NCBI GenBank assembly: GCA_945871085.1
Contig: CAMBVX010000001.1
Span: forward strand, 7,347 to 71,346
Source: Opitutus sp. GAS368
Lineage (GTDB): Bacteria > Verrucomicrobiota > Verrucomicrobiia > Opitutales > Opitutaceae
Direction of reading: 5' to 3'
DNA length: 64,000 nucleotides
Below, piece by piece: positions 34,576 to 55,665 of this stretch; positions within the stretch are counted from its first letter, which is position 1; the number at the start of each line of letters is the position of its first letter. The translations under genes were made by a program, and so were the position numbers. The notes under the pieces are model-generated. The model worked only from the letters and a program-made list of their open reading frames with translations, did not search any database and was not told the origin of the DNA.

Positions 34576-34686
34576 ATTGGCGATTTGGCTGCGGAGCCAC
34601 CGGCCTCCGTGCCTGTGGGGATTGGCGCCACGCCCGCCCGACCGGCAGGCAGGGACGCCTGCCGCTACACTGACCTGACGAACGCC
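34576..34686 (+). repeat. R1 element (copy c)
   Basis: ttggcgatttggctgcGGAGCCACCGGCctccgtGCCTGTGGggattggcgccacgcccgcccgaccGGCAGGCagggacGCCTGCCgctacactgacctgacgaacgcc. Confidence 0.85.
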
Positions 34687-36257: not shown

Positions 36258-36438
36258 TTTCGGGCCCGCCGCAGCAGTGAGAAACCACGGGCGGCGATTG
36301 TCGGTGTTGCGAATTTGGCGGACGTGCCCAAGGGCGACGCCGACCGAGGGAGTGGGGGAGGGAATTAAAGCTGAACTACGCGGCCAGTCTACCAACGCAG
36401 ACGTGCTGCCGCCACCCCCCATCCGGGTGATTTTACAC

Positions 36439-37077
36439 TTACTCCAAATGCACGATGCCGTGGCGCACGGCGCTGATCGCGGCGTCGGTGCGGTCGCGCA
36501 CCTTGAGTTTCGCGAACAGGGTCTTCAGGTGCGACTTGACGGTCTCGTCGGAAATATAGAGCTGCGCGCCGATCTCCTTGTTGCTGCGCCCGCGCACCAG
36601 CAGCTCCAGCACCTCCCTCTCCCGCGTGGTGAGATCCTGCCGCTGGGCTCGCACGGCGAGACACTCCGCGATTCGCGGCGGGAGCGCCGTGCTACCGCGA
36701 TGCACCGCGCGAATCGCTCCCGCAATTTCCTCGGTCGACATGTCTTTCAGTAAATAGGACTTCGCGCCGGACTGCATCGCGCGAAACACATCCTCGTCCG
36801 CCTCATAGGTCGTCAGCACAATCACGCGGATCTCCGGATCGCGCGCGCGCAGGCCGATGATGGTTTCCACGCCACCGATGCCGGGCAGGCGCAAGTCCAT
36901 CAGGATGACCGCGGCGAGGTCCGGTTGGTCAGCCGCGAGCACTTCCTCGCCGGAGGAGAACTGGGCGGACACGGTCATGTCGGGCTGGCTCTCGATTAAC
37001 GCCGCCAGCCCCATGCGAAAGGTGGGGTGGTCTTCGACGATCAACACCTGGATGAGAGCGGGCGTGGGCTTTTTCAT
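36439..37077 (-). CDS. NarL/FixJ-family response regulator (REC + LuxR HTH)
   Basis: VLIVEDHPTFRMGL...VILMDLRLPGIGG receiver. HTH LTTREREVLELLVRGRSNKEIGAQLYISDETVKSHLKTLFAKL. Confidence 0.92.
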   Translation of the reverse strand: MKKPTPALIQVLIVEDHPTFRMGLAALIESQPDMTVSAQFSSGEEVLAADQPDLAAVILMDLRLPGIGGVETIIGLRARDPEIRVIVLTTYEADEDVFRAMQSGAKSYLLKDMSTEEIAGAIRAVHRGSTALPPRIAECLAVRAQRQDLTTREREVLELLVRGRSNKEIGAQLYISDETVKSHLKTLFAKLKVRDRTDAAISAVRHGIVHLE

Positions 37078-37103
37078 GGGGTCGAGCGGGTGGCGGCACC
37101 AGG

Positions 37104-39269: not shown

Positions 39270-39365
39270 GGCGACCTAAAAATAGGTGCGACGCCGGCGC
39301 GTGGCCCAAGAGCGGAGGTCCGAACCGTCAGCGTGCCGCACAGCTGAGATGCACGAAGCGGGCGG

Positions 39366-39625
39366 GTTGGTTTCGGGGGAGCCACCGGCCTCCGTGCCTG
39401 AGGGGTGGGGCGCCACGCCCGCCCGAACGGCCGGCAGGGACGCCTGCCGCTACGCGGAGGCAGAACGAGAACGAGAACGAGAACGATTAGGAGAACGAGA
39501 ACGAGAACGAGAACGAGAAAGAGAACGAGAACGAGAACGATCGGGGGAGCCACCGGCCTCCGTGCCTGAGGGGTGGGGCGGATTTGCGGAACGGCCGGCA
39601 GGGCCGCCTGCCGCTACGCGGTCGG
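39366..39625 (+). repeat. Composite spacer element: R1 copy + hexamer microsatellite + R1 copy
   Basis: 39366-39462 is R1 (GGAGCCACCGGCctccgtGCCTGAGG ... CGGCAGGgacgCCTGCCGctacgcggaggca). 39463-39545 is the (GAACGA)n tract. 39541-39625 is a second R1 copy whose CCGCTAC end supplies the TAG stop of the gene at 39614. Confidence 0.85.
39463..39545 (+). repeat. GAGAAC/GAACGA hexamer microsatellite (about 13 units)
   Basis: gaacgagaacgagaacgagaacgattaggagaacgagaacgagaacgagaacgagaaagagaacgagaacgagaacgatcgg. Confidence 0.9.
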
Positions 39626-40687
39626 CAGATCAAATATCACCCGCAGGCCGCGACCGCCGGCCCCTTCCGCCAGACTGAGGCCGCCGCCGCCGCTCTCCGC
39701 CGCAGAACGCGCGATGGCCAGCCCGAGGCCCAAGCCTTGTTGTTCGCGGTGCACGCGCCCGAATTGCACGAACGCACCGAACCCCGCGCGCTCCTCTGCT
39801 GTCATGCCCGGGCCTTGATCGGAAATTTCGATCATGTAGCGCGCGCCGCGGTGGGCGCCGGTGACGACCACGGGCTGGCCGGGCGTGGAGAAACGAAAGG
39901 CGTTGCCGACGACTTCCGCGATGGCGCTCACGAGGTATGCCTCGGCCAGGAGCACGACGCCGGGGTCGCAGCGCACTGTAAGATCGGCGGTCCGCTTCGC
40001 GGCTTCGGCGGCCCGGTTGGCTCCGGTCATGATGGCCGTCATGTCGCAGCGCAACGGCCGGGCGAGTGGTGGGGCCGCTTTCGCCTGCTCCAATTCGAAA
40101 TAGAGCACGAGCTTGCGGGAGAGGGTGTGCTGGCGTTCGGCCCCGCCGCGGATGAGCGCGAGCAGTTGCTTGAGTTCGCCGGGCTGGATCGTGTCGGCTT
40201 CGGATTCAATCAGCTCGAGACCGCCGAGCACGCCGTTGAGCGGCGTCATGAGTTCGTGGGACCAATTTGCGCTCACTTCCGAACGACGTTCCACGAGGAG
40301 TTGTTCGACGCGTTCCCGGAGCGGTTTCTGCCGTTGCACGCGCGCGGCGATGGCATCGAGGATGTCGCGTTGGGTAAATGGCTTCGTGATGTAGTCGTCG
40401 GCGCCGAGCGCCATGCCGCGGCGTTGGTCGCTGCGGTCGGCCCGGGCGGTGAGGAAGATGAAGGGCACCTCGCGGCCCTCCGGTAGCTGGCGGACGGCGG
40501 TGAGCACTTGGTAGCCGTCGAACCCGGGCAGACCGATGTCGCACAGGATGAGATCGGGGCCCTCCGCCGCCCGCGCGGCCCCGGTGGGGCCGTCGGCTGC
40601 GGCGATCACGGTGTGGCCGTTGAGCTCCAGCATGTCCTGCAACGTTTCCCGGATGGCGAGTTCGTCTTCGATGATGAGGATTTTCAT
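39614..40687 (-). CDS. Response-regulator receiver fused to histidine kinase (REC-HisKA-HATPase_c)
   Basis: Start MKILIIEDELAIRETL at 40687 (ATGA overlap with the upstream gene). Receiver Asp in LILCDIGLPGFDG, H-box NWSHELMTPLNGV, and a C-terminal HATPase region (ISDQGPGM...QGLGLGLAIAR). Confidence 0.88.
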   Translation of the reverse strand: MKILIIEDELAIRETLQDMLELNGHTVIAAADGPTGAARAAEGPDLILCDIGLPGFDGYQVLTAVRQLPEGREVPFIFLTARADRSDQRRGMALGADDYITKPFTQRDILDAIAARVQRQKPLRERVEQLLVERRSEVSANWSHELMTPLNGVLGGLELIESEADTIQPGELKQLLALIRGGAERQHTLSRKLVLYFELEQAKAAPPLARPLRCDMTAIMTGANRAAEAAKRTADLTVRCDPGVVLLAEAYLVSAIAEVVGNAFRFSTPGQPVVVTGAHRGARYMIEISDQGPGMTAEERAGFGAFVQFGRVHREQQGLGLGLAIARSAAESGGGGLSLAEGAGGRGLRVIFDLPTA

Positions 40688-41796
40688 GGTGAAAAAAGTG
40701 CCGGCGGTCCGACGGGTGGGATTTTTGTCGGAGCAGGGGCGTGAGCGGGCAGTTCGAACCAGAAACGGGCGCCGTGCCCGGATGCGCTTTCGACGCCGAC
40801 CTGGCCGTGGAGTTTTTCGACGATGCGGCGCACGATCGAGAGACCGAGGCCGTGGCCTTTGACGCGCACTGCGGAGATGCGGGTGAAGGGCACGAACATC
40901 ATCGCTTGCGCGGCGGCATCGAGTCCGAGCCCGGCATCCTGCACCCAGAAACGGGTCGAGCGCCCGTCGACGCCGGGTTCTCCGCCGACCGTGATGAGCG
41001 GGTTGGCCCCGCCATATTTCGCGGCGTTGCTGATGAAATTGACCCAGACCTCGATGATCCACGGCGCGTAGCCGAACGCGTCGGGCCAGACCGCAGGTAG
41101 ACGCACGTGTGCGCCGCTCTGTTTGAGGAGGTGCTCCAGCCGATCAATCGCTTCGGCGACGATCGCCGTCATATCGAGGCGCTGCGGGACGACGGCCTGG
41201 CGGCGGACGCCGGAGAGGATGAGCAGTTCCTCGATGATATCATTGAGGCGCCGCGCGGAGTGGGCGGCCTCGTGGAGGTGATGCCGCATCGTCGCTTCGT
41301 CGGCTTGGCCGAGCATCATCGTCGCGAGGTCGAGTCGTCCGCTGAGGGTGCAGAGGGGATTCTTGAGATCGTGGGCGACGGTGTGGGCAAACGCGTCGAG
41401 TTCATCCAGCAGTTCCTTTTTTTCCAAGCGGGCGGCGATGGAGTGCATCACCTCGGCCTCGGTGAAGGGTTTGGTGATGAAGTCCGTGGCGCCGAGCTCC
41501 ATGCCGTGGCGGGTCGTGGCACGGTCCACCTTCGCCGAAATCACGATCACCGGGATCGCCCGCAACGCATCGTCGCCGCGAAACGTTTCCAAGAGCTCGA
41601 AGCCAGTCATGCCCGGCATATTGATGTCGGTGATGATGAGGGCGGGCAGGGCGCTGCGGGCGAGGGCGAGACCCGCGAGGCCATCGCTGGCGACGAGCAC
41701 GTGAAAGCCGTTGAGCGCGATCATCTCGGCGAGCGTTTGGCGGAGGGCTTCGTCGTCCTCGATGATCAAAATGGTGGCGGGGTGGAGGGGCGTCAT
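40684..41796 (-). CDS. Response-regulator receiver fused to histidine kinase (REC-HisKA-HATPase_c), paralog of the downstream gene
   Basis: ILIIEDDEALRQTL...LIITDINMPGMTG receiver, H-box FAHTVAHDLKNPL, NFISNAAKYG, and VQDAGLGL...GHGLGLSIVRR. Confidence 0.88.
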   Translation of the reverse strand: MTPLHPATILIIEDDEALRQTLAEMIALNGFHVLVASDGLAGLALARSALPALIITDINMPGMTGFELLETFRGDDALRAIPVIVISAKVDRATTRHGMELGATDFITKPFTEAEVMHSIAARLEKKELLDELDAFAHTVAHDLKNPLCTLSGRLDLATMMLGQADEATMRHHLHEAAHSARRLNDIIEELLILSGVRRQAVVPQRLDMTAIVAEAIDRLEHLLKQSGAHVRLPAVWPDAFGYAPWIIEVWVNFISNAAKYGGANPLITVGGEPGVDGRSTRFWVQDAGLGLDAAAQAMMFVPFTRISAVRVKGHGLGLSIVRRIVEKLHGQVGVESASGHGARFWFELPAHAPAPTKIPPVGPPALFSP

Positions 41797-44700
41797 GGCG
41801 GGAGAGTCGGGCTGGGGAGGCGCGGGAAAGTCAGGGTGAAACGGCTGCCGCCTCCGACCGCTGGCGCGACCTCCACCGTGCCGCCGAGCAGGCCGATCAT
41901 GCGTTGCACAATGTTGAGCCCGAGGCCGGTGCCCTTGATCGTGCCGACATTGGACCCGCGCTCGAAGGGTTCGAAGATCCGCGCGCGATCCGACTCCGGA
42001 ATGCCGATACCGTGATCCTCGACGGACAGCTGCGCCCGTGCCGTTTCGACCACCAACCGCACGGCGACGAGTGTGCCGGCGGGCGAGTAGCGCACCGCAT
42101 TGCTGAGGAGATTGGAAAGGATGTGATGGAGCAGATTGGGGTCGGAGGGGAAGGCCAGGGCATCGCCGGTGGCGGAGAATTCAAACCGGTGCTGGTCGCG
42201 GTCGCCCAGCCGGATTTCCTCGATCGCCTGGTGCACGAATGACTGCAAATCGAGCGGCGCGAGCTGGACCTCGACGCGGTTGGCGTCGACCCGGTTGAGC
42301 AGGAGGATTTCGTCCAGCATCTGGGTCATGCGCTGGAGCGAGGTGGCGATGCGGGCCAGCAATTCCTGGCGTTTCTCCGCGGTGAGGCGGTCGAGATGGT
42401 TGGCGAGGATTTCCACCGAGCCCAGCGCCGCCGCCATCGGCGTGCGAAATTCGTGCGAGGTCACGGAGATGAAACGCGTCTTCATTTCGGAAACCTGGCG
42501 CTCCTTTTCCATCATCGCGCGCATGGCCGCCTCGTGGCGTTTCTGCGCGGTGATGTCGTCTTTCAGGGCGACGTAGTGGGTCGCCCGGCCTTGCGCATCG
42601 ACCACGGGGGCGATGACGGCCGTCTCGAGATAGGTCTCCCCGTTTTTCTTCCGGTTGCGCAGCTCGCCGCTCCATACTTGGCCCCGCCCGAGGGTGGCCC
42701 ACATGTCTTGGAAAATCTGGGCTGGGGTCTCGCCGGAATTGAGGATGCGGGGGTTCTGGCCGAGTGCTTCCGCCGAGGTGTAGCCGGTTACGAGGCTAAA
42801 CCGGGGATTCACATATTCGATCGCGCCGGTGAGGTCGGTGATGACGACGGAGAGCGGCGCCTGCTCGATGATGGTCGACAACTTGTGCAGTTGCTCGCCT
42901 GCCGCCTTCTCATCCTCGACCACGCTCAACAACACCTGCCGCGCCTGCTCCAGCTCGACCAACGACTGGCGGGTTTTCTCGTCGGCGCGCACCCGCTCGG
43001 TCATGTCGCGGATATTGCATTGGATGACCTTGTGACCGTCCACCAGGTAGACGTTGCTGACAAACTCCACCTCGATCCGCCGCCCAGCCTTAGTTTCCAG
43101 CGCCATGTCTTCGTAGCGGATGTATTCCTTCGCCTGCAACTCAGCGAAGTTGTCCTGGTTGGCGACGAGGTTCTTGAAAAATCCCAGCTCCCAAACCTTC
43201 TTGCCGAGAAACACCTCGTGCGAGTAACCCAGCATCTCGACGAGAAACGGATTCACGTCCACGATCATCCCCGTCTCGGCATCGAGAATCAATATGCCGT
43301 CCTTGGCCGACTCGAAGAGCCGGCGATAGCGGATCTCCGAAGTGATCATCGCCCGCTCCGCCTGCACGCGTTCGGCCCGGGTGCGCAGCGCGGTGATGCC
43401 ATAGCCCAGATCGCCGACCAGCTCGCCCAGCAGCGCGACTTCCTCCTTGTTGAAGGCGTCCGACTCGGCGGCATACACACTCAACACCCCGAACGCGCGC
43501 TCGCCGCTGAGCAGCGGAAAGGCGACCGAGGAGTTGTAGTCGCGCTGGGTGGCTTCCGCCCGCCAAGGGCCAAAGGAGGGATCGGTCGGGATGTCGCGGG
43601 CGATCACCGGCTGGCCGGTGCGGATGGCCGTGCCGGTGGGGCCGCGTCCGCGCTCCGTGTCAGCCCAGATGACGCCCAGCGTATCGAGATAGCCGGCCTC
43701 GCTGCCGGCTTGGGCGACGGGGCGCACCGACTTCGCGTCATTCTGCTCCGCGAAACCGACCCACGCCATGCGGTAGCCCCCGTGCTCAACCACGATGCGG
43801 CAGACGGCTTGCAGCAGCTCCGTCTCGGAGTTGGCGCGCACCAGCGCTTGATTGCACTCGCTGGCGATGCGCAGCGCGCGGTCGGTCCGGCGCAACGAGG
43901 CTTCGGCCTGTTTGCGCTCGGTGATGTCCTTGTGCGTGCCGATCACCCGGAGGGGCTGGCCCGCGGCATCCCGCTCGATTACCAGACCGCGATCGAGCAT
44001 CCATTTCCAACTGCCGTCCTTGCAGCTCATGCGGTGCTCGTTGGCGTAGTGTGCGGTCGTGCCGGCGAGGTGCGCCTGCACGTCGGCCATCACGCGCGGC
44101 AGATCCTCGGGGTGCACGCGCTTGCTCCACTCCTCGAGACCGCTGCCGATTTCGTTTTCCGCAAAACCCAGCATCGCTTTCCAGCGCTTGGAAAAAACCA
44201 CCTCGCTGGCGGGCACGTTCCAATCCCAGACACCGTCGCCGGTGCCCTCGACGGCAAATTGCCAGCGCGCTTCGCTCTGGCGCAACGCCGCCTCCGCTTG
44301 CTGGCGCTCCGTAATATCGGTCGCCATGGCAAAAATCATCTGGTCTGCGGTTGAAACACTCGCTGACCAGGCAAGGAGTCTGAACTCACCATTTTTTTGG
44401 CGGTATCGGTTTTCGAAATAAAAAGTGTCTATCCCGTGAGCGAGCTTGCCCATCTCGGCGCGGGTTGCGGCTTGGTCATCCGGATGGATCAGATCAAGAA
44501 AATTGACCCCCGTAAGTTGCCCTGTGCCATACCCCAGCAAATCCTCGAAACTCTTGTTCGCGCGTTGGATCACGCCGTCAGGCTTGGCGATCAGATTCAG
44601 AGCGATGGGCTGCGCAAAGAATTTGTTGAAGATTTCCTCCGTCCGCTTGCGCTCGGTGATGTCCTGATGCGTGCCGATCACCCGGAGGGGCTGGCCTGCG

Positions 44701-46004
44701 GCATCCCGCGCGATCACCAGACCGCGATCGAGCATCCATTTCCAACTGCCGTCCTTGCAGCTCACGCGGTGCTCGTTGGCGTAGTGCGCGGTCGTGCCGG
44801 CGAGGTGCGCCTGCACGTCGGCCATCACGCGCGGCAGATCCTCGGGGTGCACGCGCTTGCTCCACTCCTCGAGACCGGTGCCGATTTCGTTTTCCGCAAA
44901 ACCCAGCATCGCTTTCCAGCGGCTGGAAAAAACCACCTCGCGGGCGGGCACGTTCCAGTCCCAGACGCCGTCGCCGAAACCTTCGATGGCAAATTGCCAG
45001 CGCGCTTCGCTCTGGCGCAACTTCGCCTCCGCTTGCTTACGTTCCCGGATTTCTCGCGCCAGCTTCCAATTCCACGCGACCGACCCGAGGAGGACGGTGG
45101 CCAAGAGGGCGACGATTTGCCAGAGCCGGGTGTAGTCGAATCCGGGTTCGTAGTGGAGGGGCAGCCACCGGCGATAAATCGCCTCGCGCTCCGTGGGGGA
45201 AACCGAATCCACCGCCTTGTCGAGGATACCGGCCAGTGTCGCCCAATCTTTGCGCACCGCCATGCATTGCGCGTTGGTGTACGGCGTGCTGCCGGCGATC
45301 TTGAGGTCCGTCATTTTCTGCTCCGCCAAGTAATAGCCCACCACGAGCATGTTCTCGACGCAGGCCAAGACTTCGCCGCGTTGGAGCAGGGCGAGCGCTT
45401 CGGCGGTCGTCTGGACCCGGACCAGTTGGACTTCGGGAAAGTCGCGGGCGATCCAGACTGCGGCCACATAGCCCTCGACCACGGCCACCTTCTTGCCCGC
45501 GAGTTCACGCAGATCGGCGATGTAGGTGACATCCGCCCGGGTGACGACGACGATGGGCATGGTCATGTAAGGCTTGGTGAAGGCCCAGAATTTCTCCCGC
45601 TCCGCGGTCACGGCCACCGTGGTGGTCAGGTCGATCTCCCAGCGTTGCAGCCGCGCATACGCTTCCTGCCAGCTCAAGTTTCGCACCCGCTCAAACTTCA
45701 CCCCCAGCCGCTCTTCAACGAGGCGCAGATACTCTGCGGTCATGCCGGACTGCGCCCCGCGTGCGTCCGTGAATTCGATCGGTGGCCAACCGGGATCCTG
45801 CGCCACGCGGATGACGGGATGCTCGCGCAGCCACGCCTGTTCATGGGGGGAGAGGGTATCAAGGAAGGCCTGCGGCGTGGACGTTTCCGCCGGCCGCTGC
45901 TCCTGGGCGTGGCCCGACATTGCGGCCCCCAGCAAAATGACGGTCGCGAGCAAGCCCAACCAATCTTTGAGCCGGATGGCGCCGGTTTTTGGTCCGCTGT
46001 TCAC
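41793..46004 (-). CDS. Giant multi-sensor histidine kinase: periplasmic solute-binding domain (SBP_bac_3-like), TM, PAS x about 5, GAF, HisKA, HATPase_c
   Basis: GTG start at 46004 gives a signal-like N-terminus (IRLKDWLGLLATVILLGAAMSGHAQ) and a GTGA overlap with the upstream stop. SBP block IRVAQDPGWPPIEFTD...GYVAAVW. Repeated PAS cores. GAF-like RMAWVGFAE...FGVLSVYA. H-box FISVTSHEFRTPM. HATPase LLSNAVRYS...DHGIGIP...GTGLGLNIV. Confidence 0.85.
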   Translation of the reverse strand: MNSGPKTGAIRLKDWLGLLATVILLGAAMSGHAQEQRPAETSTPQAFLDTLSPHEQAWLREHPVIRVAQDPGWPPIEFTDARGAQSGMTAEYLRLVEERLGVKFERVRNLSWQEAYARLQRWEIDLTTTVAVTAEREKFWAFTKPYMTMPIVVVTRADVTYIADLRELAGKKVAVVEGYVAAVWIARDFPEVQLVRVQTTAEALALLQRGEVLACVENMLVVGYYLAEQKMTDLKIAGSTPYTNAQCMAVRKDWATLAGILDKAVDSVSPTEREAIYRRWLPLHYEPGFDYTRLWQIVALLATVLLGSVAWNWKLAREIRERKQAEAKLRQSEARWQFAIEGFGDGVWDWNVPAREVVFSSRWKAMLGFAENEIGTGLEEWSKRVHPEDLPRVMADVQAHLAGTTAHYANEHRVSCKDGSWKWMLDRGLVIARDAAGQPLRVIGTHQDITERKRTEEIFNKFFAQPIALNLIAKPDGVIQRANKSFEDLLGYGTGQLTGVNFLDLIHPDDQAATRAEMGKLAHGIDTFYFENRYRQKNGEFRLLAWSASVSTADQMIFAMATDITERQQAEAALRQSEARWQFAVEGTGDGVWDWNVPASEVVFSKRWKAMLGFAENEIGSGLEEWSKRVHPEDLPRVMADVQAHLAGTTAHYANEHRMSCKDGSWKWMLDRGLVIERDAAGQPLRVIGTHKDITERKQAEASLRRTDRALRIASECNQALVRANSETELLQAVCRIVVEHGGYRMAWVGFAEQNDAKSVRPVAQAGSEAGYLDTLGVIWADTERGRGPTGTAIRTGQPVIARDIPTDPSFGPWRAEATQRDYNSSVAFPLLSGERAFGVLSVYAAESDAFNKEEVALLGELVGDLGYGITALRTRAERVQAERAMITSEIRYRRLFESAKDGILILDAETGMIVDVNPFLVEMLGYSHEVFLGKKVWELGFFKNLVANQDNFAELQAKEYIRYEDMALETKAGRRIEVEFVSNVYLVDGHKVIQCNIRDMTERVRADEKTRQSLVELEQARQVLLSVVEDEKAAGEQLHKLSTIIEQAPLSVVITDLTGAIEYVNPRFSLVTGYTSAEALGQNPRILNSGETPAQIFQDMWATLGRGQVWSGELRNRKKNGETYLETAVIAPVVDAQGRATHYVALKDDITAQKRHEAAMRAMMEKERQVSEMKTRFISVTSHEFRTPMAAALGSVEILANHLDRLTAEKRQELLARIATSLQRMTQMLDEILLLNRVDANRVEVQLAPLDLQSFVHQAIEEIRLGDRDQHRFEFSATGDALAFPSDPNLLHHILSNLLSNAVRYSPAGTLVAVRLVVETARAQLSVEDHGIGIPESDRARIFEPFERGSNVGTIKGTGLGLNIVQRMIGLLGGTVEVAPAVGGGSRFTLTFPRLPSPTLPP

Positions 46005-47230
46005 TTTGCACCCTCCACCACGCTCGGATACTTGGGCGGCTCGCCGTGACTGGCCCGCAGGGCGTTGATCTCCCGCTTGAGTCCGAGCACGCGGCCCTCG
46101 CGGCCGAGCGTCGCTCCCTGCCAGCGGCGCAACTCCTCCATTTTCGCCGCGAGATTCGCCGCCGCCGCCTTTTGCTCGGTAACGTCGCGGATGATCGCGG
46201 TGAAAAATTTCTGCCCGCCGATCTGCCATTCGGAGAGGGAGAGGTTGAGCGGGAATTCACTGCCATCCTTCCGCCGTCCCTCCACGTCCACCGTGGTGCC
46301 GATGATGTGGTGCGGCCCGCCCGCCAGCACTCGCGCCAGGCCCGCCTCATGACGCTCGTGGTGCCGGGTCGGCAGCAGCAGCGTGAGCGGCTGGCCGAGA
46401 ATTTCACTTTCCTGATAGCCGAAAATATTTTCGGCCCCGGGATTCCAGCCGATGACGTGGCCCGCGCAATCCGCGCTGATGATGGCGTCGGCGATCGAGT
46501 TGACCATCGCGCCATAGCGCGCCTCGCGTTCGCGCACCGCCGTCTGCGCCCGCTTCTGGTCTTCCAATGTGCTGAGCAGGGCCCGGCGGGCGCGCTCGGC
46601 CAGCGCTGCGTCCTGCCGGTGCACCTGGTCCGCTTGGGCCTGCGCGGTGAGGTCGGTCAAAACCAGCAGTAGCTGGCCTTCGCCGCGCCCACCCGGGACG
46701 GCGTTGATCATCAATTGCGCGGGGAAGGTGGTGCCGTCTTCCCGCGCCAGGGTGAGTTCGCCGTGGATCGGGGGAGCGCCCGTCGGACTCCCCGTGGCGG
46801 CCGCGCGCACTTGTTGGCGCAGCCGGTAAAACCGGTCCTGGTCTGCCGAGATGATGAAGCGATGGAACGGGCGCTGGATCAGCGTGGCTCGCGTGATCCC
46901 GAGCAGGCTGGCGCAGTGGAGGTTCGCCTCTTGAATCAGCCCCGCTTCGCTGACGGTGCAATAGCCCACGGGGGCGAGGTCGTAGAGGTCGTAATACCGC
47001 GCGCGGGATTGCTCCAGGTCGTGCTGCGCGCGGCGCAGCTCATCATTCTGCATTTCCAGCTCGATCTGGTGGACTTGGAGCTCGTGCAGCAGCGCGCGCG
47101 TGGCGTCGGGCGAGAGCGCCGCCAGACCGGCGGGTGCGGCGAGCGTTTTTGCGTGTAAGGCCGCTTCCGCCTGCGTGCGCAGGTCGGTCGCGGCACCGGC
47201 GGCGGGAGCACGATCAGCGAATTTTTTCAT
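46001..47230 (-). CDS. PAS-only sensor protein (coiled-coil N-terminus + 2-3 PAS, no output domain)
   Basis: Start MKKFADRAP at 47230. LLHELQVHQIELEMQNDELRRAQ...YYDLYDLAPVGYCTV. The C-terminal coiled coil EELRRWQGATLGREGRVLGLKREINAL ends without a kinase or other output domain. Confidence 0.8.
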   Translation of the reverse strand: MKKFADRAPAAGAATDLRTQAEAALHAKTLAAPAGLAALSPDATRALLHELQVHQIELEMQNDELRRAQHDLEQSRARYYDLYDLAPVGYCTVSEAGLIQEANLHCASLLGITRATLIQRPFHRFIISADQDRFYRLRQQVRAAATGSPTGAPPIHGELTLAREDGTTFPAQLMINAVPGGRGEGQLLLVLTDLTAQAQADQVHRQDAALAERARRALLSTLEDQKRAQTAVREREARYGAMVNSIADAIISADCAGHVIGWNPGAENIFGYQESEILGQPLTLLLPTRHHERHEAGLARVLAGGPHHIIGTTVDVEGRRKDGSEFPLNLSLSEWQIGGQKFFTAIIRDVTEQKAAAANLAAKMEELRRWQGATLGREGRVLGLKREINALRASHGEPPKYPSVVEGAK

Positions 47231-47249
47231 GTGCGGCGGAGTTCGGAAG

Positions 47250-47612
47250 ATTTTCGGAACGGCAGGCAGGACGCGGGCCACTGCGCGGAGGCAGCAAGAG
47301 AAAGCTTAAGAGAAAGAGGAAAAAGAACGAGAACGATCGGGAGAACGAGAACGAGAACGATCGGGAGAACGAGAACGATCGGGCGAACGAGAACGATTAG
47401 GAGAACGAGAACGATCGGGCGAACGAGAACGATTAGGAGAACGAGCACGATCGGGAGAACGAGAACGATTAGGAGAACGAGAACGATTAGGAGAACGAGA
47501 ACGATCGGGCGTAGCCACAGGCCTCCGTGCCTGTGGGGTTTGGGGGCGGGTGCGCGCGGATTTTCGGCACGGCAGGCAGGGACGCGGGCCGCTGCGCGGA
47601 GCGGCCGGTTTT
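47250..47612 (+). repeat. Composite spacer element: partial R1 (hairpin B) + 18-nt tandem array + R1 copy
   Basis: cggaacGGCAGGCaggacgcgggccactgcgcggaggcagc, then the array at 47296-47508, then GCGTAGCCACAGGCctccgtGCCTGTGGggtttgggg...cacGGCAGGCagggacgcgggccgctgcgcggag. Confidence 0.85.
47296..47508 (+). repeat. Tandem array of about 10 x 18-nt units GAGAACGAGAACGAT(CGG/TAG)
   Basis: Units alternate GAGAACGAGAACGATCGG, GCGAACGAGAACGATTAG and GAGAACGAGCACGATCGG. A degenerate AAGAGAAAG lead-in precedes them. Confidence 0.92.
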
Positions 47613-47623
47613 TTCCGGCACGG

Positions 47624-49282
47624 CTACGCCGGGAGCGGAATCTTCGCTGCGGCGGGCGTGAACGTCACGGCGAAGATCGCGGCGGGTGCCGGGCCGATCA
47701 CGAGCGTGGCGTTGAGTTGCGTGGTCAAGTCGCCCACGAGTTGCAGGCCGAGGGAGTCGCCGCGCCGCGCCGCGAAATCCGGCGGCAGGCCGACCCCGTC
47801 GTCGCTCACGCGCAGGCAAATCTGCGTGCTGCCGGCGACGGGCTGTAAGGCGATCCGCACTTCGCCGCCGCGCCCGGCGGGGAAGCCGTGTTTGAGGCAG
47901 TTCGAAATCAATTCGTTCACCAACAGACCGCAGGGTGCGGCCTGATCCATCGTGACGGTGATGGGCGCGAGTTCCAGCGTGAGCCGGACGAGGGCGGGCG
48001 CGGCGTTGAGCATACGGAAGGACTGCGTGGCAATTTGCCCCAAGTAGCTGCCGAGGTCGACGGCGGCGAAGGTGCCGGAGCGGTAAAGCATATCGTGCAG
48101 CTGCGCCATCGCGCGGATGCGCCCCTGCATGTCGGTGAGCACCGTCTTCGTGGCGGGCACGTCGCTCCGCCCGCTCTCGAGGCGCAGGAGGCTGGTGATC
48201 ACCTGCAGGTTGTTCTTCACCCGGTGGTGGACTTCGTTCAACAGCGCGGTCTTTTCGTGGAGGGAGGCTTGCAGGGCGACCTGCGCCCGTTTGCGGACGC
48301 TGATGTTCTTATGCGCCATGACGGCCCCCGCGCGCGACCCCGCCAGACGGGTGATGGTGAGGAGGAACCACCGATCCTCCGTCGGCGAGTGGCCGGGATA
48401 CTCCAGCTCAAACTGCTCCTGTTGCCCGGCCAAGACCGCGCTTAGCCCCGCTGCCACCGCGCTCGCCTCAGCTCCGTCGCGAAACGTCGCCGCCGCCCCG
48501 TGCACCTCCAGGTAGTTCGCGCCCACGGAATAGTTTCCGCGATCGGAGGCCCCGTGGTCTGCGGCGAATTGTTTCCACGCGCGGTTGACGAAGATGATGA
48601 CCGCCCGCTCGTCCAGCACGGCGATATGGTCGGACATCGAGTCCAAGATCTGGCCGTGTTCGATTTCACGCTGGCGAAGGACGGCCTCCACCTGCTTGCG
48701 GGTGGAGATGTCCGTCAGCACCAGGCTCAGCACCGTCTCGCCGTTGGTGCCGGTGTCGGCGCGCACCACAAGATTGACCCAGAGGGGCGGACCGTCGCCG
48801 CGCACCAAACGCAGGTCAGCCGAGTGCACGTTTGGCGCCGGTGCCGCGTCGGCCGGCCGAGCCTCGAGCGCCTGTTTCTTCAGGAAGTAATAGGGGTCCT
48901 GGTCGTCCTTGAGGATAAATTGGGCGAACGACTGGTGGACCAGCGCGCCTCGCGCCACGCCGAGCAACGTGCTGAGGGTGAGGTTGGACTGCAGGATTTT
49001 TCCGGCGGCGCTGACGGTGCAGTAGCCGACCGGGGCGAGGTCGTAGAGGTCGAAATAACGCGCGCGGGAAAGCTCCAGTTCGCCCTGCGCGCGGCGCAGT
49101 TCCTCTTTCTGCATCTCCAGCTCGATTTGGTGGACTTGGAGCTCGTGCAGAATGATCTGGGCCGCCTCGGGGGCGACGGGGTCCGGGCTGGCCGGCGACG
49201 CGGCGGCCTGGGCGCGGTGAGCGGCTTCGGCCTCGGCGCGGAGTGCGGCGGGGGTGCGGGATAAATCGTCGGGCGGTATCAT
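47624..49282 (-). CDS. PAS-PAS histidine kinase of the HisKA_2/HWE-type
   Basis: N-terminus ILHELQVHQIELEMQKEELRRAQ, two PAS domains, H-box EVHHRVKNNLQVITSLLRLE, and an ATPase region LVNELISNCLKHGF...DDGVGLP...SLGLQLV. Confidence 0.88.
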   Translation of the reverse strand: MIPPDDLSRTPAALRAEAEAAHRAQAAASPASPDPVAPEAAQIILHELQVHQIELEMQKEELRRAQGELELSRARYFDLYDLAPVGYCTVSAAGKILQSNLTLSTLLGVARGALVHQSFAQFILKDDQDPYYFLKKQALEARPADAAPAPNVHSADLRLVRGDGPPLWVNLVVRADTGTNGETVLSLVLTDISTRKQVEAVLRQREIEHGQILDSMSDHIAVLDERAVIIFVNRAWKQFAADHGASDRGNYSVGANYLEVHGAAATFRDGAEASAVAAGLSAVLAGQQEQFELEYPGHSPTEDRWFLLTITRLAGSRAGAVMAHKNISVRKRAQVALQASLHEKTALLNEVHHRVKNNLQVITSLLRLESGRSDVPATKTVLTDMQGRIRAMAQLHDMLYRSGTFAAVDLGSYLGQIATQSFRMLNAAPALVRLTLELAPITVTMDQAAPCGLLVNELISNCLKHGFPAGRGGEVRIALQPVAGSTQICLRVSDDGVGLPPDFAARRGDSLGLQLVGDLTTQLNATLVIGPAPAAIFAVTFTPAAAKIPLPA

Positions 49283-50274
49283 GATGGGGCTCCTTCGCGC
49301 GCAGGTCGGCGGGCACTGAGATCTTGGAGGAAAACGACGAGTTGCCCGCCCTCGACCGGGCGAAATTGGAAACTGACTTCGACCTCAAAGGTGGTCCGGT
49401 CCTTGCGGCGATGGCGGCAGGTAAAAACTCGGCCGTCACCGGCCAATACTTGTTGAAGGTGGGCGGCGGTGGCGGCGGCCGTCGAGGGGTCTTCGAGCTC
49501 GGAGATGTGCATCGTGAGCAGTTCATGCACGTCGTAGCCGCTCATGCGGCAATAGGTCTCGTTGACTTCCAGCAGCTGGCCGCGGGCATCGGCCAGCCAG
49601 AAGCCGGCCATGGCCGTTTGGAGGATGGCCCAGTGCTGCTCTTCGCGCTCCCGCAACGCCTCCTCCAGCTGCGTGCGCTCCGTAATGTCGCTCAGCACCA
49701 GGCGGAGCGTGGGGGCGCCGCCTGCTTCCGGCGCGACCGCCGCCGTCAGGTGCATGAGCCGGGGCGGGCCATCGGGCGGGAGGATCAACCACTCGCCCGA
49801 GAGCGATTTAACGGCCGACCCGGCGGCGGCCGCCTCGGACGTGAGGTGGTGCCGGAGCTGGAGGTAAAATTTGTCGGTGTCGGCCGGGGCGAGGAAACGG
49901 GCGAACGGTTGCCGGAGCAACGCGCGGTGGGGCAGCCCGAGGAGCGCGGCGAGGGTGAGGTTGGTCTCGATCAGCCGGCCCGCCGCGTCGAGGGTGCAGT
50001 AGCCGACGGGTGCGAGGTGATAGAGATCTGAATACCGCGCGCGGGAGGCGTCGAGTTTCGCCTGAGCGTGGCGCAGTTCCTCGTTCTGCATTTCCAGCTC
50101 GATCTGGTGCAAGCGCAGCTCGTGCAGCAGCAGTGGGATTTCGGCGGGCGTCGCCGCCGCGGAAGGGGCGGCGAGGTCGCGGGCGTTGTTGTGCAAGAAC
50201 GCGGACTCCGCCCGCGCGCGGAGGGCGGCGGACGGATCGGCGGCGGCGGCGGAAAGATCAGGCGACGGTTTCAT
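49279..50274 (-). CDS. PAS-only sensor protein (coiled-coil N-terminus + 2 PAS)
   Basis: LLHELRLHQIELEMQNEELRHAQ...YSDLYHLAPVGYCTL. A second PAS follows (WAILQTAMAGFWLAD...), with no output domain. The stop overlaps the downstream kinase start by 4 nt. Confidence 0.8.
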   Translation of the reverse strand: MKPSPDLSAAAADPSAALRARAESAFLHNNARDLAAPSAAATPAEIPLLLHELRLHQIELEMQNEELRHAQAKLDASRARYSDLYHLAPVGYCTLDAAGRLIETNLTLAALLGLPHRALLRQPFARFLAPADTDKFYLQLRHHLTSEAAAAGSAVKSLSGEWLILPPDGPPRLMHLTAAVAPEAGGAPTLRLVLSDITERTQLEEALREREEQHWAILQTAMAGFWLADARGQLLEVNETYCRMSGYDVHELLTMHISELEDPSTAAATAAHLQQVLAGDGRVFTCRHRRKDRTTFEVEVSFQFRPVEGGQLVVFLQDLSARRPAREGAPS

Positions 50275-50295
50275 GGGCGGGCGGGCGCAGGAAAA

Positions 50296-50640
50296 GTTTT
50301 TCAGATCGGCAGGCCGGGACGCCGGCCGCTACGCGGAGGCAGAACGAGAACGAGAACGATTAGGAGAAAGTGAAAGTGAAAGGGAAAGAGAAAGTGAAAG
50401 TGGAGGAGGAGAACGAGAACGATGGGTGGAGCCACAAACCCCCATCGGTTTGCACCGCAGAGACCCCATCTTCAGAGCGCAGAGCAAGGCAGGGGTTTTC
50501 TCTGCGTCGCCGAATTCCGCGTCTCTGCGGTGCAAAAAATCTGCGGCTTGAAAATGCCCACAGCACAACAACCCACCCAGATAACGGCCTATCGTGACGC
50601 GCTACAGCCGGGACGCCGGCCGTTACGCTGAGGGATTTGG
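50296..50640 (+). repeat. Composite spacer element: partial R1 + hexamer tract + degenerate hairpins + R1-like tail
   Basis: cGGCAGGCCGGgacgCCGGCCGCTACGCGGAGGCA, then the tract at 50342-50424, then ggagccacaaacccccatcggtttg, then tctctgcgtcgccgaattccgcgtctctgcggtgcaaaaaa, then cagCCGGgacgCCGGccgttacgctgagg. Confidence 0.75.
50342..50424 (+). repeat. Mixed hexamer microsatellite (GAGAAC and GTGAAA/GAAAGT units)
   Basis: gaacgagaacgagaacgattaggagaaagtgaaagtgaaagggaaagagaaagtgaaagtggaggaggagaacgagaacgatgg. Confidence 0.88.
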
Positions 50641-50649
50641 CCGGGGTGG

Positions 50650-53600
50650 TCATGGGGCGCCGGCCTCTGCCGTCCGTTCCGTCGTGGCGATCGCATACGG
50701 CCGGCCCCTTTCGTTGATCAGGACGGTCGCGATCATCGAAATTTCCACGATCTGGCCGGATTTGGTGAGGCGCTGCGTGCGATAGGGCTCCAGCACTTTC
50801 GCGTGGCTGAGCTCTCGCATTTTCTCACTCTCCTGGTACCGCTGCGCGGGCGGGATGCGGTCGCTCGCGTTCATCGTCAGCGCCTCGGCTTCGCTCCAGC
50901 CATACATCCGCACGGCGCCTGGATTCCACGCGAGGATGCGGCCGTTCAGATCCTTGACCGTGATGGCATCGTGCGCATCGCGCACCACCACCGCCAGCCG
51001 CAGCAGGTCGTTGGCTTCGCGCAAGGCGGCGCGCGTTTGCGCGATCTCGGTCACGTCCACGAATGAGATCACGGCGCCCTCGATCACGTTTTCCAGCGTG
51101 CGGTAGGGCTGGATCTTCATCACGTAGCTTTCGCCCGCGAGGGTCTGCACAGGGATCTCCTTGGTCACGAGCGTGTCGAGCACCACTTTCAAATCGTTGA
51201 TGAGGCCGGTGTAACTCACGAGATTCGAGACGATGTGCGCGACCGGCCGCCCGACGTCGGTCGGGATCAGGTTGATGATGACGCTGGCCGCGGGGGTGAA
51301 ACGCAGAATGCGCAGCTGATGGTCCACGAACACCGTGCCGATGCCGGTGCCGGCGAGCAGGTTGTTCATGTCGTTGTTCATCCGCGAGAGATCGACCACC
51401 TTGGTCTGCAACTCGGTATTGATGGTGGCCAGTTCCTCGTTGAGCGACTGCAACTCCTCCTTGGAGGTTTCCAGTTCCTCGTTGGTGGATTGCAGCTCTT
51501 CGTTGATGGACTGCATTTCCTCGTTCGACGACTTGAGCTCCTCGGAGGAGCTCTCCAGTTCGGCGCTGGTGCTTTGCAGATATTCCTCCGTGGCGCGGAG
51601 TTCGGCCTTGAGCGCGGCGATGCGCTCGGCGGCGTCTGGCGAAAGGGTGCCGTGCGCCACGGGCGCGAGGTCGTCGCTCATGGCGACGACCGACGGTGGC
51701 GCCGGGGCCGCGAGCGGCGCTTCCTCGAGGATGACCAGAAAGAGTGGCGCCTCCGGGGACGCGCCCGGGCCGGAGGTCACCGGCCGGATGGTGAGGTTGA
51801 CTGTGGTGAAGTGGCCGTTGGTTTTTACGCGCAGGCCCGGGTGGACGCCGGTGTCGCCGGTGCCCACCGCCCTGTACAGGCCGGAGGTCAGCTCGCGGCG
51901 CAGGCCCTCGCGAGCCATCTTAAGGATGTTGTTGAGGCCGGCCTCGCCGGGGCTGGGCTCGAGAAACAGGCCGGTGCGACCGTGCAGATAGAGGATATCA
52001 CCGTGGGCGTTGACCAGCGCGCCGGCGGCGATGATCTGCGCGAGCAGCGCGTGCTCGGTGGTTTCGCGCAGCGAACTGCGTGCGCCTTTGGCCGCCGCTA
52101 TTTTTTCCTGCGCCGATGGCAGCGCCGCACCCGTCGCCGTGATGGGTGGCCGGAAGAGCCGGAGGGCCGCGCGTTGCTGGCCCTGCAAGTCAGCTTTGCG
52201 CTGATACAGATTGGCCTTGCGGTCGATGGCGCTGAACAGGCCGTTAAACTCGCCCACGCCTTCGGACGTGCCGAGGAACAGGGTGCCCTCCGCTTTCAGC
52301 GCATGGTGAAAGAGCGGGATGAGTTTCTTCTGCAGGTCCGTGCCCAGGTAGATCAGCAGATTCCGGCAACTGATCAGATCGAGTTTGGAGAAGGGCGGGT
52401 CTTTGATGACGTCCTGCTTGGAAAATACCAGCAGGTCGCGGATGCCTTTGTGGATGCGGTAGGCGCTGCCGTCGGCTTCGGCGGTGAAAAAACGCGCCAG
52501 GCGCTCCGGCGAGAGGTCGGCGGCGATGCTCGCCGGGAAGAGCCCGGTCCGGGCGGTGGCGATGGCCTGGCTGTCGATGTCGGTGGCGAACACCTGCACC
52601 GGGAAGCTGGCCTTGAGGGCCTCCATGCGCTCGACCAGCAGAATGGCGATCGAGTAGGCCTCCTCGCCGGTGGAGCAACCCGTGCTCCAGACACGGATCA
52701 CCGCGCCGGGGGATTTGTGCGCAAAGAGAGTCGGGATGACCTGATCCTCCAGCACCTGAAAGGCCTCGGGATCGCGGAAGAAATTGGTGACGCCAATGAG
52801 CAGGTCCCGAAACAGCGCCTCCACCTCGGCGGAAGTCTGCTGCAGATATTTGACGTAGTTGTCGATCCCCTCGATCTGGTGCACCGCGATGCGCCGGTCG
52901 ACGCGGCGGTGGATGGTGCTGGGTTTGTAGAGGGAAAAGTCGTGGCCGGTCTGGGCGCGCAGCAGCTGGAAAATTTTCTTCATCGCGCCCTCGACGTGGG
53001 GCGCGGAGAGGGTGGTGGCTTTGGGGAGTTTCCTCAAGGCGTGGGTGGCGTAGGCGATCAGCTGCGCGGGCATCTCGGCCGGCGGCAGCTCGTAGTCCAC
53101 GAGGCCGGTGCCGATGGCGCTGCGCGGCATGCCGTCGAACTCGGTCGATTCCGCGTTCTGCGCCATGACCATGCCGCCCTCGGCCTTGATGGCGCGCACG
53201 CCCTGGGTGCCGTCGCTGCCGGTGCCCGAGAGGACGATGCCGATGGCACGCTCGTGCTGATCCGCAGCGAGGGAGCGGAAGAAAAAATCGATCGGCAGGC
53301 GGTGGCCGCGCGGCTCGCCGGGTTCGAGCAACTGCAGCGTGCCATTGACGAACGCCATGTCGCGGCCGGGCGGAATGATGTAGGCGCAGTTGGGCTGCAC
53401 GACCATGCCGTCCTCGACCTCAAAGACCTGCATGCGCGTGCAGCGGCGAATGAGTTCGGAGAGGATGCTCTTGTAGTCCGGGGCCAAATGTTGCACGAGC
53501 ACGAAGGCCATGTCCGTATCGACGGCGGCGGGCATGCCGGCGAAAAACGCCTCGAAGGCGGCGAGGCCGCCGGCGGATGCACCGAGGCCGACAATCGGAA

Positions 53601-53745: not shown

Positions 53746-53956
53746 AATGACGCCTTCATTTTCGTCGCAGGACTGACGGTGGAGAGAAGCACGGCCGGGG
53801 TGGTGGGGCCACATAATTCACGCTGCGGGGTGGGGTGTCGGCATGATTCACCCCGCTGGGCGCGGCGAGCGCGCCGCTGGCCCCGAAGAGCCGAGCGGGG
53901 GAGTGCGCGCGGCGTGTGGTGCGGCCGAGGAAACGACGCCATAAATCCAGCCGACC

Positions 53957-55245: not shown

Positions 55246-55665
55246 TTTTGTCATCGCGAGAGCTGAACCAAGGCGCGGCGCCTTGGGTGCCCGGGGCAAT
55301 GAACTTTGTTTGTCATGGCGAGCTCGGAGCAAGCGAGCTTGCGGGGTGGTGGCAGTGAACCGGACAAGGTTTGTCATTGCGAAGGAGGCTTGCCGACTGT
55401 GGCAATCCATCTGGAAACGCACCGTGGATTGCCGCAGTCGCTGAGGCTCCTTCGCAATGACAAACAGCGGCTGTTTCCTAGAAGAAGCGCAGCGACGTGG
55501 CCATCCATCTGGAATTTCAGCTGGATTGCCGCGCCCGCCAAGCCGGGCTCGCAATGACAAACTGTATGTGTTCATTCGCAGGAGCAGCCCTCCGCGCGGC
55601 GACGAAGCAATCCAGCTGGATCGCCACGCCGCGCGCCTTGCGCCACGCGAGGACGATCATTTCGA
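55246..55665 (+). repeat. Cluster of GTCATTGCGA...TCGCAATGAC-type long hairpin repeats (R2 units a-b-c-d-e)
   Basis: For example 55369-55462: TTGTCATTGCGAAGGAGgcttgccgactgtGGCAATCCAtctggaaacgcaccgTGGATTGCCgcagtcgctgaggCTCCTTCGCAATGACAA. Units a, d and e recur in the same order at 57688-57927. Confidence 0.88.

Follow-up and report, generated by a model that had tools for sequence, protein, structure and literature searches.

The GTAG class of repetitive extragenic palindromic (REP) sequences was defined by Di Nocera et al. in 2013, together with its head-to-head (HH) and tail-to-tail (TT) dimers, and Opitutus terrae was reported to be highly enriched in GTAG repeats (PMC3733652). Variable spacers belong to the TT dimers, REP clusters reiterate along with flanking DNA, and degenerate GTAG tags have been described (PMC3733652). 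Ordered tandem clusters of REP doublets forming hairpins (REPINs) were described by Bertels and Rainey (PMC3116915). Here, we report on three short tandem arrays of GAGAAC-type hexamers and 18-mers that lie in the spacers of a signalling locus of Opitutus sp. GAS368, within a stretch of 64,000 nucleotides (64 kb) of contig CAMBVX010000001.1 that we refer to as the window. We consider it probable that these tracts are the variable TT linkers of a mosaic of GTAG REPs, that they have expanded from an 18-nt module of the Opitutaceae, that they change by slippage and exchange, and that one such block was inserted in this lineage.

The hairpins of the window share with GTAG REPs, REPINs, and clusters of the bacterial interspersed mosaic element (BIME) kind a short GC-rich stem-loop, an unpaired GTAG tag, head-to-head pairing, and dispersed extragenic copies (PMC3733652, PMC3116915). 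As in those clusters, the TT spacers are variable, a REP pair is reiterated with its flanking DNA, and the number of units depends on the strain. In contrast to them, the TT spacer found here is a hexamer/18-mer array of up to 213 nt, made of a module that also occurs free of REPs in other genera.

Four further systems are comparable in part. The mycobacterial interspersed repetitive units used as variable number tandem repeats (MIRU-VNTR) also lie as tandem units in the intercistronic spacers of operons, including the two-component operon senX3-regX3 in which they were first found, and vary in copy number between strains. The ends of a MIRU overlap the stop and start codons of the adjacent genes (PMC3184786), which is mirrored in other Opitutaceae, where the upstream stop codon is contributed by arms of the module that finish 2-14 nt short of the next start. 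The MIRU sequence is unrelated, however, its units are 40-100 nt long rather than 6 or 18 nt, and our tracts are joined to REP hairpins and lie off the neighbouring reading frames. BOX elements of Streptococcus pneumoniae are likewise modular intergenic mosaics with constant ends, variable internal tandem units, and a predicted RNA structure, but they are built of boxA, boxB, and boxC modules with a 45-nt internal unit and belong to another phylum. The short tandemly repeated repetitive (STRR) heptamers of heterocystous cyanobacteria are lineage-specific, intergenic, and hairpin-capable (PMC2670836), with units of 7 nt compared with 6 or 18 nt here; they differ in sequence and lineage, and no association with REPs has been described for them. 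Phase-variable contingency loci share with our tracts slippage-prone repeats that lie upstream of genes and vary in the population. Unlike those loci, the tracts lie outside reading frames and not between a -35 and a -10 element, their changes in length are large, their unit types change, and no on/off logic is evident.

GTAG REPs (reported for Opitutus), mosaic REP clusters of variable unit number, intercistronic VNTRs, and lineage-specific short tandem repeats are therefore already known as classes. What is new is the composition of the linker and a family-level module of 18 nt, in arms of 36 nt with fixed polarity, that serves as a complete intercistronic spacer. A literature search gave no description of this repeat in a bacterial context, nor under Opitutaceae repeats or RAYT (REP-associated tyrosine transposase) with Opitutus.

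Three purine-rich arrays lie in the spacers of a signalling locus

An earlier note on this DNA, made from its letters alone, had placed GAGAAC-type microsatellites in three spacers of a signalling locus. We confirmed three such arrays on the plus strand, all of them intergenic, at 39463-39541, 47294-47508, and 50342-50423; we call them arrays A, B, and C and their spacers 39, 47, and 50. Within the minus-strand locus at 34758-53814, the only spacers longer than 30 nt are the three that hold these arrays. Array A (79 nt) consists mainly of GAGAAC hexamers with GATTAG and GAGAAA variants and reads GTTCTC on the strand of the genes; Tandem Repeats Finder assigned to it a period of 6 and 13.2 copies (39462-39540). 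In array B, the largest, the approximately 10 ordered 18-nt units GAGAACGAGAACGAT(CGG/TAG) described earlier are present, but they are preceded by a degenerate GA-rich lead at 47294-47322; the same program found a period of 18 and 9.1 copies at 47347-47509, with the consensus GAGAACGAGAACGATCGG. For array C (82 nt) the GAGAAC label holds at the two ends only, and the interior in this strain is mostly made of GAAAGT and GAGGAG units (AGAACG in 3.2 copies at 50341-50359, GAAAGT in 6.2 copies at 50366-50402).

The sequence GAGAACGAGAAC, with at most one mismatch, occurs 24 times in the 64 kb compared with 0.41 expected, always on the plus strand and always within the three tracts. The tracts are also the top three 78-nt windows of the 64 kb in purine content (0.83-0.87). 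As the note had stated, they are comparatively AT-rich, with a G+C content of 0.45-0.51 compared with ~0.64 overall (0.58-0.70 across the window), and their coding strand reads (GTTCTC)n with CUCCUAAUC strings. Folding predictions describe them as unstructured, with a probability of being unpaired of 0.67-0.86 compared with 0.31-0.42 in the flanks and folding z scores of -0.6 to -1.0. Each tract lies upstream of a minus-strand start codon: 193 nt from that of a HisKA_3 histidine kinase gene (37104-39269, start at 39269) for array A, 64-66 nt from that of a 409-aa PAS-domain protein gene (46001-47230, start at 47230) for array B, and 68 nt from that of a 331-aa PAS-domain protein gene (49279-50274, start at 50274) for array C.

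Two other identities were tried for the arrays. As coding DNA they were rejected, as the plus-strand open reading frames (ORFs) at 39286-39678, 47231-47848, and 50186-50551 overlap real minus-strand genes and were passed over by a codon-usage gene finder. A CRISPR array, with repeats of 23-47 nt and unique spacers of similar length, was ruled out, the units being arranged head-to-tail without spacers. No Rfam 15 covariance model matched the window at gathering scores, nor the region 39200-50700 at E values up to 1.

The arrays join GTAG REPs tail to tail

The element that the earlier note had named R1 comprises two hairpins, H1 and H2, each with an 8-bp stem, a 6-nt loop, and an unpaired tag. 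H1 is GTAG-CCACAGGC-CTCCGT-GCCTGTGG and H2 is CGGCAGGC-AGGGAC-GCCTGCCG-CTAC; their predicted folding energies are -9 kcal/mol (z -3.4) for H1 and -10.2 kcal/mol (z -3.1) for H2, and the tags GTAG and CTAC stay outside the stems. Because H1 and H2 are one motif read on opposite strands, R1 is an inverted pair with its tags on the outside. The tag of H1 is GTAG at 20398, 28575, and 47511 and in L044, a contig from a relative, and GGAG in the remaining copies; that of H2 is CTAC in five copies and CTGC, CTAG, or TTAC in the others. Altogether, the intergenic DNA of the window carries six head-to-head pairs and three single REPs at six sites. REPs are imperfect palindromes of 20-40 nt with stems of 5-13 bp, a short loop, and an unpaired terminal tag, a description that the hairpins fit, and inverted pairs of them are dispersed over the 64 kb; as in REPIN clusters or BIMEs, REPs alternate with recurrent linkers in tandem reiterations that vary between strains. 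The hairpins are GTAG-tagged REPs, and their pairs are REPIN-like.

Three of the pairs have no array and lie on the plus strand at 20398-20480, between convergent genes, at 28575-28660 (-22.7 kcal/mol), and at 34590-34675. The other REPs flank the arrays, also on the plus strand. In spacer 39, a head-to-head dimer at 39375-39462 (repeat families D6, D9, and D10), with (G)GAG-CCACCGGC...GCCTGAGG as H1 and CGGCAGG...CCTGCCG-CTAC as H2, ends in the junction GCGGAGGCA and is followed by array A and by a second head-to-head dimer at 39543-39624, which adjoins the stop of the minus-strand gene 39614-41062. In spacer 47, array B is preceded by a single H2-type REP at 47253-47293 (family D10), with the degenerate tail CTGC and the junction GCGGAGGCA, and followed at 47509-47607 by a head-to-head dimer in which a GTAG-CCACAGGC hairpin (H1, -9 kcal/mol, z -3.4) and a CGGCAGGC hairpin-CTGC precede a GCCGG-T6-CCGGC hairpin; the stop of the minus-strand gene 47624-49282 adjoins these hairpins. 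In spacer 50, a single H2-type REP at 50300-50341, with CTAC and the junction GCGGAGGCA, leads into array C, which is followed by an H1-like variant at 50426-50452 (GGAG-CCACAAACC...GGTTTG) and by an H2-like REP with the tail TTAC at 50607-50635 (family D10), adjoining the stop of the CheB/CheR gene (50650-53814, minus strand). Between the H1-like and H2-like REPs, spacer 50 also holds an unrelated long palindrome (50450-50535) with 15-bp arms, TTGCACCGCAGAGAC and GTCTCTGCGGTGCAA, and an inner hairpin, which is present in all strains.

The junction GCCGCTACGCGGAGGCA, which the note had described as common to the three tracts, is exact at 39446 and 50325 and carries 2 mismatches at 47277, and a hairpin follows every tract. 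The joints are laid out as ...hairpin-CTAC-GCGGAGGCA / array / GGGnG-(G/T)AG-CCAC-hairpin..., so that every tract fills the gap from the CTAC tail of one REP to the GTAG or GGAG head of the next and is a tail-to-tail spacer. The right junction of array C, GATGGGTGGAGCCAC, is identical in all strains.

The tracts vary between strains

Allele contigs were drawn from other metagenome samples on the basis of an identical or 98% identical PAS protein, or an identical response regulator. Outside the tracts, these contigs are 99.1-99.9% identical to the window, and within them we found the length polymorphism that had been predicted. Spacer 50 has four alleles in four samples (82 nt in the window, 181, 193, and 163 nt in the others), among which the count of GAGGAA units (4 or 5) and that of 18-mers vary, the window differing in a whole unit type, GAAAGT. 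Such differing unit content cannot be an assembly collapse. In spacer 47, the tract (213 nt) is identical in three samples and differs in contig L002. Spacer 39 reads REPIN-array-REPIN in the window and REPIN-array-REPIN-array-REPIN in contigs L040 and L041, which is the layout of the tandem REPIN clusters of Bertels and Rainey (PMC3116915); its arrays measure 79, 97, or 43 nt, the [array+REPIN] unit of ~165 nt is present in one or two copies, and the alleles also differ in unique variant units. Exact copy numbers are soft, because the contigs are short-read assemblies with gaps and breaks in the arrays.

Two elements of the window served as controls. A palindromic GA element at 14886-14982 did not differ by a single base among eight contigs from ENA, JGI, and Logan, and the REPIN at 34590, which has no array, was stable in two other samples save for a few base changes. 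The tracts are the fastest-changing sites of the locus, and they provide three ready, highly discriminating VNTR markers for strains of this uncultured freshwater Opitutaceae population.

Spacer 50 is a lineage-specific insertion

In L039, an Opitutaceae metagenome-assembled genome with a PAS protein 56% identical to that of the window, the CheB/CheR gene overlaps the next gene by ATGA, without a spacer. In L044, from a relative with ~80% nucleotide identity, the CheB/CheR stop overlaps the start of the kinase gene (ATGA), and both the 331-aa PAS gene and spacer 50 are absent. Since two relatives have the ATGA overlap, spacer 50 was inserted specifically in this lineage. The 331-aa PAS gene and the N-terminal part of the neighbouring kinase are paralogous (repeat family D2). 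The window's lineage therefore duplicated part of the kinase and gained a 375-nt REP/array block where its relatives keep translational coupling.

In L044, the joint recurs as CTACGCGGAGGCA/GAACGAGAAC, with a REPIN and an array of 24-nt units, at another place, upstream of CheB/CheR, where the contig ends in the array. The REP-array composite is therefore a recurring unit whose position shifts between species. This was the one match in a census of the junction in JGI metagenomes, in which arrays break short-read assemblies. For spacer 47, a search for orthologues of the 409-aa PAS gene returned only a truncated, uninformative contig. At L044:4700-4770, a REPIN holds a (GGGGA)n microsatellite of its own between its two hairpins; inter-REP spacers seem to be generally prone to short-unit expansion in this lineage.

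An 18-nt module occurs in many other Opitutaceae

The 24-mer GAGAACGAGAACGATYRGGAGAAC was sought in 185,579 species, each represented by a single genome, with 596 billion bases in total. There were 34 matches compared with ~0.02 expected by chance by our arithmetic, 32 of them in assemblies named Opitutaceae, Opitutus, Lacunisphaera, Opitutae, or Verrucomicrobia. The module is 18 nt long, GAGAAC GAGAAC GATYRG, and takes the form GAGAACGAGAACGATYRG in many Opitutaceae. In more than 20 other assemblies of the family it neighbours unrelated genes (gyrB-gyrA, purine permease, miaB, ABC transporters). This makes it unlikely that the tracts are a binding array for a regulator of this particular locus, one of the roles that the earlier note had proposed.

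In those species the module forms short intergenic arms rather than running on freely as a microsatellite. Exactly 36 nt, or two 18-nt units, was the length of 37 of the 70 arms, and the longest measured 66 nt; among arms of at least 24 nt, 61 of 62 were intergenic, though coding sequence accounts for 84% of the DNA. Inverted pairs, 25 in number, comprise 50 of the 70 arms, all 25 with the pyrimidine arm first and none with the opposite polarity, in the form (AATC GTTCTC GTTCTC CT)2, a loop of 10-94 nt, and (AG GAGAAC GAGAAC GATT)2. These pairs fold as long hairpins of -30 to -75 kcal/mol. They lie between tandem (18), divergent (3), or convergent (1) genes, at a median distance of ~6 nt from the upstream stop by our reading, and often end 2-14 nt before the next ATG. 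A role of this palindromic form as an intrinsic terminator was rejected, since only 15 of the 70 arms are followed by three or more T residues and the element also occurs between divergent genes. Rfam gave no match for it in 16 other loci.

Orthologous spacers keep the element across species (gyrB-gyrA, upstream of the purine permease, and others) in a comparison that is biased for the seed arm, and in them the partner arms differ by unit turnover. Arms pair no better within an element than across elements (-35.8 compared with -37.8 kcal/mol, p 0.22), so each arm tracks the family consensus and not its partner. No co-evolution between arms was detectable, and no covariation backed a selected hairpin. 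In 35 kb from Oleiharenicola lentus and another relative, we found no arm, and the orthologous dUTPase spacer lacked the element of the window, which indicates a patchy distribution, as for selfish repeats. For O. lentus, 20 kb were examined and proved free of the module. The element concerned is the control palindrome at 14886-14982, a degenerate member of the palindromic form located between the divergent dUTPase gene and a 413-aa gene, with the pyrimidine arm TCTTTCTCTTTTCTC..., a loop, and the purine arm ...GAGAAAGATAAAGAAGACCGAGAACGAT. The palindromic form was also compared with miniature inverted-repeat transposable elements, which have terminal inverted repeats, target-site duplications, and filled and empty sites between relatives. 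Its arms are inverted, with a polarity that is fixed; no target duplication was seen by eye, and orthologous sites were mostly filled in both species. One site, filled in the window and element-free in O. lentus, showed no clean boundary.

None of the other Opitutaceae loci that we fetched carried the REP stems of the window. The module is therefore older and more widespread than this REP family. In four of the loci (L014, L015, L020, and L033), a purine arm adjoins, at its inner end, a hairpin that terminates in CTAC (CTACGG/GAGAAC, CTACGGGAAGGGCCACCCG/GAGAAC); REPs may preferentially insert beside the module.

A conserved IVP gene is bracketed by two arms

Many Opitutaceae carry, after a miaB-like gene, a PF05635 gene (23S rRNA IVP, four-helix bundle), a gene for a 181-aa protein, and gmk. 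The IVP gene is bracketed by a pyrimidine and a purine arm at L025:6025-6499, L030:6395-6885, L016:3330-3854, L056:9960-10437, and L057:9966-10432. The spacer between miaB and IVP is the pyrimidine arm itself; its CCTAATCG contains the TAA stop of miaB, and the ATG of IVP comes 0-4 nt past the arm. At the other end, the IVP frame terminates inside the purine arm (GAG AAC GAG AAC GAT TAG/TAA, translated as ENEND*), with the next ATG 2-6 nt past it, and ~30 of the 35 IVP orthologues inspected end in ENEND or EKENE. With the miaB stop in the pyrimidine arm and the IVP stop in the purine arm, the hexamer GATTAG/CTAATC holds a stop codon whichever strand is read.

The layout is reminiscent of the stem of an intervening sequence, but set in an mRNA. 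In 23S rRNA intervening sequences an IVP gene sits in a stem cleaved by RNase III, and in the Opitutaceae the PF05635 gene sits exactly between complementary pyrimidine and purine arms; here, by contrast, the setting is a miaB-IVP-gmk mRNA operon and not an rRNA, and any cleavage of the stem is putative. We also considered whether the IVP gene is a proliferating mobile cassette. This was ruled out, as all IVP loci of which the full sequence was fetched (L025, L056-L058) proved to be one and the same syntenic locus, miaB-IVP-gmk. The three tracts of the window, on the other hand, have neither a partner arm nor an IVP gene.

A model for the origin and turnover of the arrays

Taking four points together, we are fairly confident that the tracts are linkers of GTAG REPs, that each is an expanded arm without a partner, that they change by slippage and unequal exchange, and that at least one block was inserted into a coupled gene pair. 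In the model that we propose, an expanded run of the 18-nt module would serve as the linker between REPs. As the arrays have no complementary partner and a perfect 6- and 18-nt periodicity, they would gain and lose units, presumably through replication slippage and unequal recombination. At spacer 39 a whole [array+REPIN] unit is itself gained or lost, and at least the 50-kb spacer was inserted in this lineage into a pair that relatives keep translationally coupled. REP/array blocks of this kind may have split an ancestral operon into separately controlled cistrons. The RNA of the genes would then present a REP hairpin, an unstructured C/U-rich and G-poor stretch, and another REP hairpin, a succession that suggests an insulator or 3'-end element over a promoter switch. 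If so, REP-type repeats can cut a translationally coupled signalling operon into separate cistrons, which would be a route for selfish repeats to remodel regulation.

The earlier suggestion that the tracts could simply be internal microsatellites of a mobile hairpin element came close. The tracts are variable spacers in REP clusters, and the copy number of the [array+REPIN] unit varies; the mobility part of the suggestion we can only infer, and by analogy the REPs would be mobilized by a RAYT-type transposase.

Several observations weigh against the model. No RAYT or Y1_Tnp domain was detected by Pfam in 30 of the ~46 genes of the window, and REP mobility is an argument from analogy. The alleles were all taken from metagenomes assembled from short reads, in which arrays longer than the k-mer can collapse or be mis-joined; array B of L002 is interrupted by a run of N, and the L003 and L044 contigs end inside arrays. 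Conservation of the module across genera exceeds what is usual for REPs. The fixed 36-nt length of its arms and their strict polarity, with the pyrimidine arm first, point to recognition by some host factor, so that a purely selfish or neutral reading may be incomplete. Finally, the four REP-linked arrays of the lineage (those of the window and that of L044) all have the same orientation relative to the downstream gene, which could reflect function rather than history.

Alternative explanations

The orientation of the arrays is one of the facts that would be explained if they punctuated transcripts, with the C/U-rich, G-poor, unstructured RNA behind the upstream stop and REPs as a putative loading site for Rho or an RNA-binding factor that insulates the cistrons and whose length tunes read-through. 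We regard this as rather unlikely. The composition is suggestive: the sense strand has 0.33-0.39 C, 0.06-0.15 G, and 0.42-0.49 U, the arrays are mostly unpaired, and the C/G ratio of spacer 50 (8.5) is the highest of any 78-nt window of minus-strand RNA. By our tally, ~8 single arms in other species are pyrimidine-rich after a stop codon compared with ~2 of the opposite kind, and all four arrays of this lineage share that orientation. Yet the coding strands are C-rich generally, the C/G ratio is only 2.8 in spacer 47 (the tenth-ranked window) and lower in spacer 39, the pyrimidine arm is paired with a purine arm in most other species, and the tally comes from crude gene calls and cases that are not independent.

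A wider version of this explanation, to which we give a similarly low probability, takes the GAGAAC/GATYRG module as a putative operon punctuation signal of the family. Its 36-nt arms would give the upstream stop, end near the next start, and pair across a cistron, as they do around the IVP gene, forming an RNase III-type processing stem or a platform to which a conserved factor binds; in the lineage of the window, single arms would have been taken up by REPs, and their unchecked expansion would make strain-variable insulators. If true, these insulators would retune the stoichiometry of a chemotaxis-like signalling pathway, and a module with a role in RNA processing, coupling, or termination would amount to a lineage-specific operon punctuation in a poorly studied phylum.

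The earlier note had also proposed contingency-type control, in which the number of repeats in a length-variable promoter or 5'-untranslated region would set the expression of the downstream kinase and PAS genes. The tracts do lie 64-193 nt upstream of the first gene past each spacer and vary between closely related strains, and, should the REP hairpins end the upstream transcript, each downstream gene would require a promoter of its own. However, no sigma-70-like promoter turned up on the two strands of 39000-51000 when they were scanned, every tract is set apart from the start codon by a REP hairpin, and nothing ties repeat number to expression. Furthermore, lengths change in steps of 6 to >100 nt, with a full change of unit type at spacer 50, unlike the one-unit spacing changes of known promoter switches, and the same module occurs beside housekeeping genes in other species at a fixed length of 36 nt. 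As in contingency loci the repeats are polymorphic; a tract within a reading frame or core promoter was not found. A contingency switch is therefore quite improbable, polymorphism being the only positive evidence for it.

Several individual signals were sought in and around the arrays and rejected. An ECF (extracytoplasmic function)-like GAAC-N17-CGA spacing is, by eye, a trivial and uninformative outcome of the hexamer periodicity. GATTTT as the -10 element of a leaderless mRNA fails by eye, its distance to the ATG varying from 3 to 8 nt, and LexA-type GAAC boxes have the wrong spacing. The arrays are not intrinsic terminators, being unstructured; the only terminator-like site in the spacers, at 47587-47606 on the plus strand, lies outside the array.

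It is very doubtful that the 18-nt module is a predicted site for a conserved DNA- or RNA-binding protein of the Opitutaceae, such as a nucleoid protein or the IVP protein, with the expanded arrays as high-capacity binding or titration sites. Such a protein could account for a module that is exact across many species, for the arm length of two units, the inverted pairs of strict polarity, and arms that pair no better within than across elements, and for the conserved IVP gene between two arms. Against this, a 6-nt periodicity is off the helical repeat of double-stranded DNA, two other Opitutaceae lack the module throughout 35 kb that take in their orthologous dUTPase spacer, and the units of spacer 50 have drifted to GAAAGT and GAGGAA without being removed.

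Lastly, that the tracts are stable and their polymorphism an artefact of assembly is scarcely credible despite the short-read contigs, the run of N in L002, and the contigs broken inside arrays, as array B was assembled identically in three independent samples, the alleles of spacer 50 differ in unit type as well as number, those of spacer 39 carry unique variant units, and the non-tandem control was identical in eight contigs.

The signalling locus and other features of the window

Relatives of the window's proteins at >=90% identity bear names of uncultured Opitutaceae (Verrucomicrobiota). Pfam searches of the window's proteins identified 34758-53814 as a signalling locus, with genes for a LuxR-type response regulator, the HisKA_3 kinase, two receiver-kinase hybrids, a large SBP-PAS-GAF kinase, the two PAS-only proteins, a HisKA_2 kinase, and a CheB/CheR-PAS fusion. 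The 5' parts of three genes are paralogous with 68-75% identity: 46800-47089 in the 409-aa PAS gene, 48861-49150 in the HisKA_2 kinase gene, and 49838-50127 in the 331-aa PAS gene. The locus grew via partial duplications, and the borders of the duplications match two of the REP/array spacers. In the PAS-rich kinase gene 41793-46229, an internal duplication of 300 nt (43903-44202 and 44638-44937, 95% identical and 735 nt apart) appears to be a recent copying of a PAS module.

The coding strands are C-rich, with a GC skew of -0.2 to -0.3 over the plus-strand genes (1-10 kb) and a positive skew over the minus-strand genes (21-54 kb). Directly upstream of the REP pair at 20398, a 78-aa ORF lies beside a PIN-domain protein gene (19455-20083), and the two are likely a toxin-antitoxin pair. 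A repeat of ~100 nt (TGGATTGCCGC...GCAATGACAAAC, copies 90% identical) flanks the multicopper oxidase gene 55985-57607, at 55425-55582 and 57762-57861, with a third, partial copy at 55425-55465.

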